A stretch of DNA of 25,652 nt from Promethearchaeota archaeon (GTDB lineage Archaea > Asgardarchaeota > Lokiarchaeia > Sigyniarchaeales > SOKP01): assembly GCA_048941265.1 (NCBI GenBank), contig JBHLNT010000052.1, positions 1 to 25,652 on the forward strand, written 5' to 3'. The position numbers were made by a program, and so were the translations under genes. The notes beneath the pieces were generated by a model, which saw nothing but the letters and a program-made list of their open reading frames with translations, had not been told where the DNA came from and made no database searches. Positions 4,100-25,652 of the stretch are shown piece by piece. The stretch's first letter is position 1. Each line of letters opens with the position of its first letter.

Positions 4100-5068
4100 A
4101 TGAATGAAACGAAACATAATGAAAATTACGTTCTAATTATCGGTTCGAGTAATATGGACTTAAATATCTATTCTCAGAGGCTCCCTAAACCAGGAGAGAC
4201 GGTCACTGGGGGAATATTTCAGCAATTTTTGGGTGGTAAAGGTGCTAACCAAGCAGTTGCTTCCGTACGGTCAGGTGCGAATACTGTTTTTATAGGAAGA
4301 ATCGGAACTGATGCATTTGGAGATCAGATGGTATCTCGATTAACTTCCGAAGGCATCGATATGAGCCATACTATTAGAGATGCTCAACACGCAAGCGGAG
4401 TAGCATTTATTATGATTGATGAGCATGGTGAGAACATGATAAGTGTGGCACCTGGGGCTAATTTTCATTTAAATAAATCGGATATAACCAAATCATCTAT
4501 TATAATTAAAAATGCAACTTCTTTAGTAGTACAGATGGAAATTCCGATTGATACCATTGAAGAAATATTTAAAATTGCTTCTGAAGGGAATGTAATTAAA
4601 ATCCTAAATCCCGCACCTTTAAAAGTTATTCCCATAAATATTTTAAAAAACATAGATATAATCGTTCCTAATGAAGGTGAATTATATCGATTACATACCC
4701 TCTTTAAGCTCCCTGAGTTAAAATCTGAAGGTAAGAAAAAAATAATCCAAGCCTCTAAATCCATTGCAGATTTAGGAATAAAGTTCGTTATTACTACCTT
4801 AGGAAATAAGGGGTGTTTAATCTACGAAAGAGAAAATGAAAAAATCATTGAAATACCTGCAATTAAAGTACAGGCTATAGATACCGTAGGAGCAGGGGAT
4901 TGTTTTAATGGAGTATTAGCAAGTAAATTATGTAATGGCCAAACCATCGTAAATGCTGTCAAATATGCCACAGCCGCCGCTTCTATAGCTGTAACTAGAA
5001 AAGGAGCCCAAGATTCCATGCCTTATGCCCAAGAAATAGAAGAACAATTTAAAAAATTAAAGCATTAA
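4100..5068 (+). CDS. rbsK: Ribokinase (PfkB family)
   Basis: GSSNMDL...LPKPGET, GGKGANQAVA, GENMISVAPGAN, QMEIP, NPAP, PNEGE, DTVGAGDCFNG, GAQDSMP. Confidence 0.9.
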   Translation: MNETKHNENYVLIIGSSNMDLNIYSQRLPKPGETVTGGIFQQFLGGKGANQAVASVRSGANTVFIGRIGTDAFGDQMVSRLTSEGIDMSHTIRDAQHASGVAFIMIDEHGENMISVAPGANFHLNKSDITKSSIIIKNATSLVVQMEIPIDTIEEIFKIASEGNVIKILNPAPLKVIPINILKNIDIIVPNEGELYRLHTLFKLPELKSEGKKKIIQASKSIADLGIKFVITTLGNKGCLIYERENEKIIEIPAIKVQAIDTVGAGDCFNGVLASKLCNGQTIVNAVKYATAAASIAVTRKGAQDSMPYAQEIEEQFKKLKH

Positions 5069-19500: not shown

Positions 19501-19908
19501 TTATGCCGTGGGAATTTGTTTTAATACAGGTTCCATTATTTCAAAAGCTTTTTTTAGCTTATGCACGTAATATCCAAGTTTAAAAGCTTTTTTACAGCTT
19601 GAGAAGAGCATATAATTATTATCTGCTGCTCCTACTAAAATAATAGTATATCCTTTTGTACCTCTTATTACGATTTCCTGCAATTCACCCTGATCTAAAC
19701 CTTGGCTTATTTTTTGCCCTAAGGAAATTAAAGTAGCGGGACTAGCACTATATATATCTGCAACAACATCAGCAGTTTCAGAACTCGCAATTCTTAAACC
19801 TGTTTTTGAAACGATTGCTGTTGCTTCTAAATCTGTGCTACCCTCAATTGTTTCAAGAAGACGCATTAAATCATCAAGTATTTGTTGGTCAATTTTAACT
19901 TCCATCAT
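19501..19908 (-). CDS. Roadblock/LC7 (MglB-like) domain protein
   Basis: 135 aa; L...E..TDLEATAIVSKTGLRIAS...SA..ATLISLG.K....L..GELQEIVIRGTKGYTII......LGY. Confidence 0.88.
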   Translation of the reverse strand: MMEVKIDQQILDDLMRLLETIEGSTDLEATAIVSKTGLRIASSETADVVADIYSASPATLISLGQKISQGLDQGELQEIVIRGTKGYTIILVGAADNNYMLFSSCKKAFKLGYYVHKLKKAFEIMEPVLKQIPTA

Positions 19909-23041: not shown

Positions 23042-23752
23042 ATGGATAATCTAGACTTAATATTCAAGGAAGATTTAATAAGAAACAAACTTTATCTCTA
23101 TGATTCCTCAGAAAGAACTATTATCAAGGATGAATTTTTTACTCCATCAGCAGTTTTATTTTCGATAATTCCGCATGTAGATAAACCTTATGAATTGGTG
23201 GTTATTCACCGCACTGATAAAGGAGTAAAACATCGGGGTGAGATGTCATTTCCGGGTGGGAAAATAGATCCTCAAGATAATTCTTTAATGGATACTGCCT
23301 TAAGAGAAACTGAAGAAGAAATAGGTGTCCCAAGAGAGAACATAAGAATTATAGGGTGCCTCCATGATTTTCCAACCATGAGTCAATACATAATCACTCC
23401 ATTTATCGGTATCATCAAAGAAGATCAAGTAATGAAAAGAGATGAAAGAGAGGTTCAAGCGATTGTTAAAGTACCAATCAACTTTTTTGTGAATAAAAAA
23501 CATTTCAGAGAGCAAACCTTTGAAATAGCAGGAAAGAAATTACCGGTGTTTTATTTTAATTATAGAGATAAGATCACCAATAAAACTTATACAATCTGGG
23601 GTGCTACTGCCTACATGATTGTAAACTATATTGAGCTTGTATATGGTTTAAAAATGTCTAAGCTTGGAATAAGAAGATTTAATATTCAGGAAATTAAAGA
23701 TTTAAAAGATTTTTTAAAATATAGAGATCAAATTACTGAAAAATTAAAATAG
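23042..23752 (+). CDS. Nudix hydrolase, CoA pyrophosphatase (NUDT7/Pcd1-like), copy 1
   Basis: SAVL...R....KHRGEMSFPGG motif, Nudix box TALRETEEEIG, ITPFIG, IWGATA. Confidence 0.93.
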   Translation: MDNLDLIFKEDLIRNKLYLYDSSERTIIKDEFFTPSAVLFSIIPHVDKPYELVVIHRTDKGVKHRGEMSFPGGKIDPQDNSLMDTALRETEEEIGVPRENIRIIGCLHDFPTMSQYIITPFIGIIKEDQVMKRDEREVQAIVKVPINFFVNKKHFREQTFEIAGKKLPVFYFNYRDKITNKTYTIWGATAYMIVNYIELVYGLKMSKLGIRRFNIQEIKDLKDFLKYRDQITEKLK

Positions 23753-23760
23753 GTAAAACA

Positions 23761-24435
23761 ATGGAACCTTTGAACTTCATTTTTGATGGGAATTTAATAA
23801 GAAGTAGATTAAAACATCTAAATTCGCCAGATAGATTAACTATGAGAGAAGAACCTTTTGTAAATTCAGCGATAGCCTTTTTAATCATTCCTTATAAAAA
23901 TAATCCTTATGATCTGGTTCTGATCCGTCGAACTAAGAGAGAAGATGATAAACATGCAGGAGAAATGTCTTTTCCAGGTGGAAAAGTAGATTCTCAAGAC
24001 AATTCATTAATTGATACAGCTTTTAGAGAGACAGAAGAAGAACTTGGGATCCCAAGAAAAAATATCAATTTACTAGGCTGCCTTGACGATCATTTAACGC
24101 CAAAAGGTTTCATAATAACTCCAATCGTAAGTTACATCGATAAAAATCAGGAAATGATCAAACAAGATGAGGAAGTGAAAGAAATTGTAAAGATTCCTAT
24201 AAGTTTTTTTGTGAATAAGAAAAATTATCGAGAGAGAACTTATTCTATAAAAAAAGACTTAATAGGGGTTGGAAAATTTAATTACAAGGCGCCCAATGAT
24301 AAAAAATATGTAATTTTTGGAGCAACGTCTCATATAATAGTAAATTATGTCGATACAGTTTATAATACGGGATTAATGACGCCAGGGTGCCGACGAATTA
24401 AATGTGCCGATATTAGAGATAAAATTGTTAAATAG
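23761..24435 (+). CDS. Nudix hydrolase, CoA pyrophosphatase (NUDT7/Pcd1-like), copy 2
   Basis: SAI...LIRRT....KHAGEMSFPGG, TAFRETEEELG, ITPIV, IFGATS; paralogue of the upstream gene. Confidence 0.93.
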   Translation: MEPLNFIFDGNLIRSRLKHLNSPDRLTMREEPFVNSAIAFLIIPYKNNPYDLVLIRRTKREDDKHAGEMSFPGGKVDSQDNSLIDTAFRETEEELGIPRKNINLLGCLDDHLTPKGFIITPIVSYIDKNQEMIKQDEEVKEIVKIPISFFVNKKNYRERTYSIKKDLIGVGKFNYKAPNDKKYVIFGATSHIIVNYVDTVYNTGLMTPGCRRIKCADIRDKIVK

Positions 24436-24523: not shown

Positions 24524-24670
24524 TTGAGCAAGAAGAAAAAAAGAATATCTGAGGAAACTGAAACAGAGGAATATGGTATCGTATTAAAAAAAAGGAAAAA
24601 ATATAGGCATCGAATCTTTCCACAGAAAGGTAAGAAACCAAGAGAAACTGATGATTATAAAGTAGTTTAA
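24524..24670 (+). CDS. Small basic protein (48 aa, TTG start), not in the ORF track
   Basis: MSKKKKRISEETETEEYGIVLKKRKKYRHRIFPQKGKKPRETDDYKVV-stop; AAGTGA SD-like element upstream; purine-rich coding-like composition. Confidence 0.55.
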   Translation: MSKKKKRISEETETEEYGIVLKKRKKYRHRIFPQKGKKPRETDDYKVV

Positions 24671-24688
24671 TTTTAAAAATAAACCATA
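24643..24688 (+). repeat. 46-bp direct repeat, copy 1
   Basis: AGAAACTGATGATTATAAAGTAGTTTAATTTTAAAAATAAACCATA, identical to 25461-25506. Confidence 0.95.
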
Positions 24689-24737
24689 TATTCCTTTTTT
24701 CAATAGTTAGTAAAAATTTGTCATTGTCGATAAATTG

Positions 24738-25193
24738 TTAAGAACTCAATACCAATATTATCATTATGAGAGCGACTAGAATCCAAAACAAATAATATAT
24801 GACCTGCCACTTATGTTCTTTTAAAGTTCTATTAACAATCCATAGTGGAATGAAAGTTAAACAACCCCAAATACTAATTAAAAGAAGCGAACCTGGTATA
24901 AAAAGAAAAAGATTAAAAAGAAGAGGATTCAACCAGATAAAAATCTCAAAAACATACATTACAATCAACATAACAATAAAAAGTCTTTTTTCGCTCCAAT
25001 CTTTTTTAATAAAAATGTAAAATATTAGAATTATACCCAAATATAAAAATAGAATAAATGGCATATAAGAGATCCATTCAGCTAATCTAGCATGCCATAC
25101 AGTAATATATTCAACAATTACCCAAAAGATAAAAGAAAGGATTATATATTGTAATCCCTGTGATTTTTTAGTGAAATTTTTGGTTTCTTCCAT
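24738..25193 (-). CDS. Hypothetical multi-pass membrane protein
   Basis: 151 aa with about five hydrophobic helices; no recognised motif. Confidence 0.75.
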   Translation of the reverse strand: MEETKNFTKKSQGLQYIILSFIFWVIVEYITVWHARLAEWISYMPFILFLYLGIILIFYIFIKKDWSEKRLFIVMLIVMYVFEIFIWLNPLLFNLFLFIPGSLLLISIWGCLTFIPLWIVNRTLKEHKWQVIYYLFWILVALIMIILVLSS

Positions 25194-25209
25194 ACACTAA
25201 ATTTAAGAT

Positions 25210-25410
25210 TTAAAGATATTTTAACCTTACAATTATTGATAAAAACTTATCATTTTCTATAAAAATCACTATAAAAATCCCTATGGTGAAAAGCCGCCAC
25301 AAATGAAGATCAAACGCAGGAACATCATTCATTTGATAATAGAGCTCCGGCATCAGCAGATATAGCATGCCATAGTAAATCGCGACGACAATATCAACAA
25401 TCAGTATGAT
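25210..25410 (-). pseudogene. Possible degraded membrane-protein fragment
   Basis: Open stretch IILIVDIVVAIYYGMLYLLMPELYYQMNDVPAFDLHLWRLFTIGIFIVIF...; cut off upstream by a TAA in an A-run, with no start ahead of the first helix; higher GC than flanks. Confidence 0.4.
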
Positions 25411-25460
25411 TTTTTATACTCTTCAGAAGTCCTGCTGCTAATTTTAGACAAAAAACCTGA

Positions 25461-25506
25461 AGAAACTGATGATTATAAAGTAGTTTAATTTTAAAAATAA
25501 ACCATA
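25461..25506 (+). repeat. 46-bp direct repeat, copy 2
   Basis: Identical to 24643-24688 (offset 818 nt); ends 38 nt before tRNA-Sec. Confidence 0.95.
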
Positions 25507-25543
25507 AATTTCTTTTAACACTTTAAATTCTATTACTTAATAT

Positions 25544-25652
25544 GGCCCTTGACGGTCGGAATTGCTTTGAGATCATTTCGATCTCCAACGATAAGTGGTC
25601 TCTGACGCTGGGCTTCAAACCCAGTTATCCTGCGGAGGGATAGGAGTTCGAT
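25544..25652 (+). tRNA. selC: tRNA-Sec (anticodon UCA) with a 34-nt BHB intron (25561-25594) in the D-stem; 3' end beyond the window
   Basis: After removing 25561-25594: acceptor 5' strand GGCCCTTGA, CG, 7-bp D-stem GTCGGAG/CTCTGAC with TGGT loop, 6-bp anticodon stem GCTGGG/CCCAGT with loop CT-TCA-AA, long variable arm TATCCT/GGGATA, then GGAG-TTCGAT. selB lies 4 kb away. Confidence 0.92.

Follow-up and report, generated by a model that had tools for sequence, protein, structure and literature searches.

A predicted bulge-helix-bulge intron in the D-stem of a Promethearchaeota selenocysteine tRNA gene

The D-arm has been described as a hallmark of archaeal tRNA-Sec and as its contact with PSTK (for the hallmark, see PMC5330540; PMC4989117). 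One report speaks of "only a single case" of a tRNA-Sec intron before Daphnia (PMC5330540). In Lokiarchaeota, a 31-nt intron was reported in the T-loop of a tRNA-Sec that has a 7-bp D-stem and whose gene is linked to EFsec (Mariotti et al., 2016; PMC4989117), and a 2022 review gives this T-arm intron as the only archaeal case (PMC9499178). A preliminary description of a contig from an Asgard archaeon (Promethearchaeota), which gave the T-arm position of the published intron correctly (PMC4989117), proposed that a tRNA-Sec gene at the contig end is split within the D-stem itself. Here we ask whether that interruption is an intron, where its ends lie, which enzymes could remove it and how widely such introns occur among relatives of the host. 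The DNA analyzed, hereafter the window, is the whole of a 25,652-nt contig (C284) from a genome of 5.0 Mb in 361 contigs with 30.5% G+C.

The tRNA-Sec gene at the contig end

The plus strand of the window ends in an archaeal-type tRNA-Sec gene with anticodon TCA (25544-25652), of which the 5′ three quarters are present and which the contig end at 25652 cuts inside the T-loop (Table 1). The UCA anticodon lies in a 7-nt loop on a 6-bp stem, as in the archaeal 9/4 tRNA-Sec, and the long variable arm is present; the acceptor and T-stem are represented by their 5′ strands, with the 3′ strands and the discriminator beyond the contig end. The insertion separates nt 6 from nt 7 in the 5′ strand of the D-stem. 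Joining 25560 to 25595 yields a 7-bp stem, GTCGGAG/CTCTGAC (one G-U), closed by TGGT, and this 7-bp stem with its 4-nt loop exists only once 25561-25594 has been removed. On re-reading the sequence, every coordinate in the preliminary description proved correct to the base. A covariance model built from the uninterrupted exon-2 core (R1) gives 91.2 bits at the window and finds one tRNA-Sec core in the whole genome. The 3′ part of the gene was sought in the other 360 contigs, but neither an exact search with the reverse-complemented acceptor strand nor a degenerate pattern for T-stem and acceptor with one mismatch allowed turned up anything tRNA-like in them.

Table 1. Features of the tRNA-Sec gene, its predicted splicing motif and the SelB gene in the window
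Feature	Position	Strand	Content or basis
SelB/EFsec, archaeal, 470 aa	19971..21383	-	Pfam: GTP_EFTU 1.8e-35, GTP_EFTU_D2, aSelB_III PF21440 3.9e-11
Exon 1	25544..25560	+	acceptor 5′ strand, linker and D-stem nt 1-6; sequence, orthologues
Acceptor 5′ strand	25544-25552	+	9 nt
Linker	25553-54	+	CG; sequence
D-stem 5′ strand, nt 1-6	25555-25560	+	GTCGGA; sequence
Predicted intron, class A, BHB-type, 34 nt	25561..25594	+	base-exact absence in intronless orthologues; covariation
Exon 2, cut by contig end	25595..25652	+	sequence; R1 core model; relatives
D-stem nt 7	25595	+	G
D-loop	25596-99	+	TGGT
D-stem 3′ strand	25600-06	+	CTCTGAC
Anticodon stem	25607-12 / 25620-25	+	6 bp
Anticodon loop	25613-19	+	CTTCAAA; TCA at 25615-17
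Variable arm	25626-42	+	17 nt; 6-bp stem and 5-nt loop
T-stem 5′ strand	25643-46	+	GGAG
T-loop, then contig end	25647-52	+	TTCGAT
Central helix H, 5′ strand	25555-25558	+	GTCG; exon; D-stem nt 1-4 in mature tRNA
Central helix H, 3′ strand	25589-25592	+	CGAT; intron; 4 pairs with GTCG, one G-U
5′ bulge	25559-61	+	GAA; cut inferred after 25560
3′ bulge	25593-95	+	AAG; AA 25593-94 intronic
h′	25562-64 / 25586-88	+	TTG / CAA; 3 bp
Intron hairpin	25569-74 / 25580-85	+	GAGATC / GATCTC; 6 bp, extends h′

Judging from its gene content, the host is a selenocysteine user. SelB is encoded 4.2 kb upstream of tRNA-Sec on the opposite strand. The selD gene (L176, 1468-2685; G000:C297:3133-3933) has an in-frame TGA in an HG-U-SCK motif, so that SelD is itself a selenoprotein. 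The C-terminal half of SepSecS is present at a contig start; matches to PSTK were no better than weak, at 31.9 bits where the cut-off is 290.5. By sequence, then, the end of the window is a genuine tRNA-Sec gene, and the insertion in its D-stem has the form of an intron.

Orthologues with and without the insertion

When the 109 bases were compared by blastn with 60 related genomes, full-length matches were found in 14. In other genomes the match came in two immediately adjacent pieces, bases 1-17 and 51/52-109, which identifies these as orthologues lacking exactly the predicted 34 bases. Thirty homologous loci were extracted, of which L027, with its 5′ end cut, and the truncated window were set aside for gene length. 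At all remaining loci, removal of the insertions left colinear genes of 90 nt (91 nt in L035) with a 9-bp acceptor, a 7-bp D-stem, a 6-bp anticodon stem, TCA, a long variable arm, a 4-bp T-stem and a discriminator G. The 27 full-length 90-nt orthologues, which represent 23 distinct sequences (the 91-nt L035 is outside this count), all share a terminal G, the 9-bp acceptor stem and the 4-bp T-stem. Each stem shows compensatory changes among the 23, and one acceptor pair is non-standard; four of the seven D-stem pairs vary yet stay paired, and covariation is seen at four of the six anticodon-stem pairs. An encoded CCA follows the discriminator G in 28 of 29 loci (3′ ends of L013-L040) and also in most loci of families f2 and f4 (L148-L166); archaeal tRNA-Sec genes are described as lacking an encoded CCA in a 2022 review (PMC9499178).

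The window's exons are the same as those of its nearest relatives across all 75 bases present: the 17 nt of exon 1 are identical in orthologues, and the exon 2 segment is 100% identical to that of eight relatives. In intronless orthologues of the host's family, exon 1 abuts exon 2 exactly at the predicted junction, and intronless alleles are also found among DNA contigs of the same sediment samples. The intron boundaries proposed in the preliminary description, 25561-25594, are thus reproduced to the base by orthologues colinear with the predicted splice product.

We then counted insertions across the host's family. R1 matched in 129 of 135 family genomes, and 104 further stretches were fetched; 15 weak matches (27.9-31.5 bits) were dropped, which removes genomes G138, G140 and G142, and the resulting census comprises 133 loci in 126 genomes. 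An insertion at the D site is present in 54 of the 129 loci readable there, and falls into two classes. Class A, the window's kind, is 29-34 nt long, ends in CGATAA or CAATAA and occurs at 48 loci in 47 genomes from 10 of 13 genera. Class B measures 32 nt, has its motif one base upstream with the helix GGTT/AACC, and was seen at six loci in five genomes of one genus. T-loop insertions after T59 (59/60) are present in 50 of 130 readable loci, and anticodon-loop insertions at 37/38 in 13 of 133. Among the 126 loci fully readable at all sites, 58 are uninterrupted, 34 have D and T introns, 17 a D intron only, 11 an anticodon-loop and a T intron, four a T intron only and two an anticodon-loop intron only. 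Hence 68 of 126 genes carry interruptions, which fall at four positions (D-stem 6|7, D-stem 5|6, 37/38 and 59/60), and 45 of them have two introns. Outside the host's family, the survey covered families f2, where no D-site insertion was found at 12 loci (14 genomes) and one locus has a T-loop insertion, and f4, where none was found at five loci (four genomes). One candidate D insertion, L100 (G063:C410:927-1204), was rejected, being an intronless gene with a 15-nt partial copy of exon 1 located 18 nt upstream. The single-contig genome G078 has two tRNA-Sec genes (L109 and L118; G078:C1:1145225-1145282 and 777920-777977), both with a 32-nt class-B D-stem insertion, the two insertions differing in sequence.

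The census also bears on the part of the gene past the contig end. Wherever a 34-nt D insertion is accompanied by a readable 3′ side (15 loci), the T-loop has an insertion too, and the same holds for 18 of the 20 readable loci that share the window's GGAG T-stem. This co-occurrence makes a second intron in the window gene likely; from its relatives, a T-loop (59/60) intron of roughly 30 nt very probably starts at the first base past the contig end. The suggestion of a second intron just past the window edge has thereby gained support.

Could the arrangement be a product of assembly or binning, with the insertion or the exon order arising as a chimera of co-occurring strains? Matching DNA is found in sediment, mangrove and cold-seep metagenomes, and the samples do contain many related strains. 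Summed over four DNA runs, depth is about 4,300-4,800 at exon 2 against 7-130 at exon 1 plus intron, and some metagenome contigs have exon-1-like sequence running straight into exon 2. Moreover, in seven of 134 loci, that of the window among them, the contig stops precisely at the D or T insertion site (L012, L027, L046, L055, L087, L094, L134). These breaks would be accounted for if mixed alleles with variable introns interrupt the assembly graph at intron sites. Against a chimera, the same exon-intron-exon order stands on contigs of 47 genomes, some longer than 1 Mb (G001:C6), and single metagenome contigs bridge exon 1, intron and exon 2 (two span 25477-25607 and one 25200-25607). We regard an artefact as exceedingly improbable, and treat the insertion as a real part of the gene.

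Candidate splice sites and the enzymes that would act on them

The geometry is laid out as in canonical archaeal introns, with an outer helix, a 4-bp helix and a 3-nt bulge on each strand. In the window, the 4-bp helix lies between the two bulges, and cuts after the second base of each bulge remove exactly 25561-94. Across class A, all four central pairs are formed in 46 of 48 loci and three of four in the other two. The third central pair is C-G in 34, U-A in three and U-G in three of 40 distinct sequences, and in two genera (g7 and g11) GTCG/CGAT has become GTTG/CAAT, a compensatory change from C-G to U-A. All six pairs of the intron hairpin show double changes among the 40 distinct introns. 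The central helix is paired in 98.7% of cases, with none of 500 shuffles reaching the observed values, and the ten named pairs are paired in 95.5% of cells in the 40 distinct introns compared with 86.3% after shuffling (again 0/500), although these sequences are related by descent and the shuffle count is therefore not a probability. When the partner is slid by one to three columns, pairing of the ten falls to 24-48%. Conservation of the central helix partly reflects shared ancestry, the same GTCG/CGAT occurring in 39 of 48 class-A loci. The exons, by comparison, are nearly invariant, while the middle of the insertion varies in sequence and length (29-34 nt) and its BHB-forming ends are kept.

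The motif is relaxed by comparison with the canonical BHB. At 53 of the 54 D-site loci the outer helix on the exon side, h, is limited to 2 bp, and h′ has at least 2 bp in 42 of 54; because h is only 2 bp, the motif would be the relaxed HBh′ form rather than a canonical BHB. Nor is it the minimum-energy fold: in the truncated window fragment its pair probabilities are about 0, and in full-length relatives the minimum free energy (MFE) structure retains 6 bp of the D-stem and leaves the intron looped out, so that the motif competes with the D-stem. Enforcing the BHB in seven precursors kept all other arms and cost 1.4-4.9 kcal/mol above the MFE. The BHB of the preliminary description therefore holds up in its pairs and bulges, in the relaxed form and at that energetic cost. 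Motifs were also scored at the other two sites, covering 48 of 50 T-loop and 9 of 13 anticodon-loop introns. T-loop insertions have four of four central pairs in 24 and three of four in the other 24, with the T-stem as the outer helix; anticodon-loop insertions have four of four in all nine.

The enzymes that would act on such a substrate are encoded in the genome. Two EndA homologues score above the Pfam cut-off (107.4 and 69.4 bits), one a 201-aa open frame on contig C258, the other a 198-aa open frame on C323. The first is best matched by chains 3p1z_B and 3ajv_B and retains Tyr, His and Lys; the second is closest to 1a79, with Phe and Ser in place of the Tyr and His of that chain and with Lys kept. 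We take the Tyr and His of 1a79 at those sites to be catalytic. The pair would fit a two-subunit (alpha-beta)2 enzyme. Asgard archaea are described as having an (alpha-beta)2 EndA, whose L1 loop has been linked to broad specificity, and (alpha-beta)2 EndA cuts HBh′ substrates (PMC5829648). RtcB is also present (569 bits).

The following course of events may be proposed. The precursor would be transcribed with the 34-nt intron separating nt 6 from nt 7 in the 5′ D-stem strand, and would give up its partial D-stem so that GTCG could pair with the CGAT close to the intron's 3′ end. The result would be the 4-bp helix of a relaxed HBh′ motif, with the splice sites in the 3-nt bulges GA|A and AA|G. 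An (alpha-beta)2-type EndA would then cut both bulges, and RtcB would ligate the exons, giving the 7-bp D-stem and 4-nt D-loop of archaeal tRNA-Sec. From sequence, we infer both that cleavage and ligation take place and that they do so at these bonds.

Two other readings have to be weighed against this course. The insertion might stay in the RNA, the gene being either a decaying pseudogene or the source of a tRNA that works with a 34-nt D-arm expansion. The MFE fold of full-length relatives is indeed a cloverleaf in which the D-stem keeps 6 bp and the insertion enlarges the D-loop, and a preprint warns that, among D-arm insertions, some "may not be introns at all" (10.64898/2026.10.13.758758). 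The pattern of variation speaks against retention, however: the exons are near-invariant around an insertion with a variable middle, its ends keep the BHB with compensatory change, and orthologues without it have exactly the spliced sequence. Furthermore, this is the only tRNA-Sec of a genome whose SelD needs UGA read as selenocysteine, and the hallmark 7-bp D-stem (PMC5330540; PMC4989117) appears only after excision. Retention is thus very improbable.

Alternatively, the intron could be removed by way of another fold, in another register, or with extra factors acting on a precursor whose D-stem is paired. The height of the BHB conformer above the MFE and the 2-bp h would suit this, as would class B, which has a helix of its own (GGTT/AACC) one base upstream and indicates that the D site tolerates different registers. 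On the other hand, the other register from which the same product would result forms none of the four central pairs in the window, the central helix is almost always paired and includes a double change, and HBh′ is accepted by (alpha-beta)2 EndA (PMC5829648). We consider removal by such another route very improbable as well. It is highly probable, in our assessment, that the host's sole tRNA-Sec has a 34-nt BHB intron in its D-stem that is spliced by EndA and RtcB, very probably together with a T-loop intron. Given that the hallmark D-arm is present only after splicing, selenocysteine decoding in these organisms would depend on EndA and RtcB.

Precedents, detection and turnover of the introns

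The gene resembles the Lokiarchaeota tRNA-Sec in its 7-bp D-stem and 4-nt D-loop after removal of the insertion, in its TCA and, judged from its full-length orthologues, probably in its 9/4 fold and G discriminator, comes from the same phylum, and likewise has EFsec a few kb upstream on the opposite strand (PMC4989117). The T-loop intron of that gene also recurs in the 50 family loci counted above. The window's intron differs in lying in the 5′ strand of the D-stem rather than in the T-loop, and the family differs in having two-intron genes, D plus T in 34 of 126 loci and 37/38 plus T-loop in 11, and in that its D-interrupted genes go undetected by Rfam and ARAGORN.

Introns outside position 37/38 are established in ordinary Asgard tRNAs. 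In three Asgard genomes, 92-95% of tRNA genes are interrupted (Valentin-Alvarado et al., 2024; PMC11291895). A preprint reports that 30% of intervening sequences escape tRNAscan-SE, the D-arm accounting for most of those missed, and that two EndA paralogues occur in 44 of 60 genomes; selenocysteine tRNAs are mentioned there in the methods only (10.64898/2026.10.13.758758). The class described here shares with these non-canonical BHB introns a length of about 20-35 nt at non-37/38 positions (PMC11291895; 10.64898/2026.10.13.758758; PMC4090602), a 4-bp helix with two 3-nt bulges and a relaxed outer helix, omission from standard annotation, and an (alpha-beta)2 EndA in the genome. Those reports concern mainly ordinary tRNAs of Atabeyarchaeia, Freyarchaeia and Jordiarchaeia (PMC11291895; 10.64898/2026.10.13.758758), whereas the host gene here is tRNA-Sec; the main texts of both do not mention a tRNA-Sec D-stem intron, although their supplementary tables may list one. 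The D-arm positions given elsewhere, 20/21, 22/23 and 25/26, are in the loop or on the 3′ side (PMC4090602), in contrast to the 5′ strand in the window.

For tRNA-Sec itself, "unusual insertions and deletions" were noted in tRNAsec of some Lokiarchaeia (Sun et al., 2021; PMC9723677). They were seen through Secmarker alignments of Asgard genomes and were neither called introns nor placed; the word "intron" has no occurrence in the full text of that paper. These insertions are probably the same objects as the introns of this family. The available text of PMC11227280 is silent on tRNA-Sec structure. A full-text search found no published description of a D-stem intron in tRNA-Sec, though supplements may hold one. 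The position had been suggested to be new: this stands for tRNA-Sec as far as print goes, but D-arm introns in Asgard tRNAs are already in the literature. In mechanism it is a tRNA intron of the usual archaeal kind, and the lineage is one in which such introns are now known to abound; the new elements are the gene that hosts it and its position there, the occurrence of two introns in one gene, and the polymorphism across the family. The printed statement that the Lokiarchaeota T-arm intron is the only intron in archaeal tRNA-Sec needs to be corrected accordingly.

The main practical consequence is under-detection of tRNA-Sec. ARAGORN found no tRNA in the window and Rfam no match in it at gathering thresholds; RF01852 gives 21.8 bits for 25579-25650, below its gathering score of 47, which is explained by the intron and the truncation. 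All 11 intronless orthologues score 53.9-63.6 bits with the same model, which upholds the tRNA-Sec identity assigned in the preliminary description. The one locus with a T-loop intron only scores 49.4 bits, the three with a D-site insertion only score 44.2, 35.0 and 34.4 bits, and loci with two insertions score 28.1 bits or have no match at an E of 1 or less. ARAGORN called tRNA-SeC(tca) in none of seven precursors, with the intron option on or off, compared with seven of seven relatives spliced by script and three of three intronless genes. The expectation that standard finders would miss the gene was therefore borne out for ARAGORN and Rfam. Because ARAGORN does not see D-intron genes and Rfam scores them under its gathering threshold, a survey that makes detection of tRNA-Sec a requirement for the selenocysteine trait can mistake users among Asgard archaea for non-users.

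How such introns come and go has been named as an open problem (10.64898/2026.10.13.758758), and presence/absence polymorphism at one orthologous locus offers a clean test bed for intron gain and loss. Nearly identical exons with a 34-nt intron occur across genera, in the window (g1), G035/L013 (g2), and G084/L050 and G113/L088 (g11), with one to three differences within the intron, while congeners of these genomes have other intron variants or none. The cross-genus near-identity could reflect exchange between lineages or mis-binned metagenome contigs. Gain, loss or exchange would also be in keeping with the second intron class one base away and with the coexistence of intron-bearing and intronless alleles in the same sediments. 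We offer only as a doubtful possibility that the class-A D-stem intron is no passive relic but a unit repeatedly gained, lost or exchanged at one homologous site of a single-copy gene on which selenocysteine use depends; if true, tRNA-Sec would be a natural single-locus system for the arrival and departure of BHB introns.

Several features of the surrounding DNA may be recorded. A Roadblock/LC7 gene (19501-19908, minus strand) adjoins SelB, and between SelB and tRNA-Sec lie tandem NUDIX-domain genes (23042-23752 and 23761-24435; 236 and 224 aa). Just upstream of tRNA-Sec, a 67-nt direct repeat with 91% identity (24632-24698 and 25450-25516) flanks an ORF of 151 aa (24738-25193, minus strand) that has no Pfam match. 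A third, partial copy of the repeat is located on another contig (C72:190-216).
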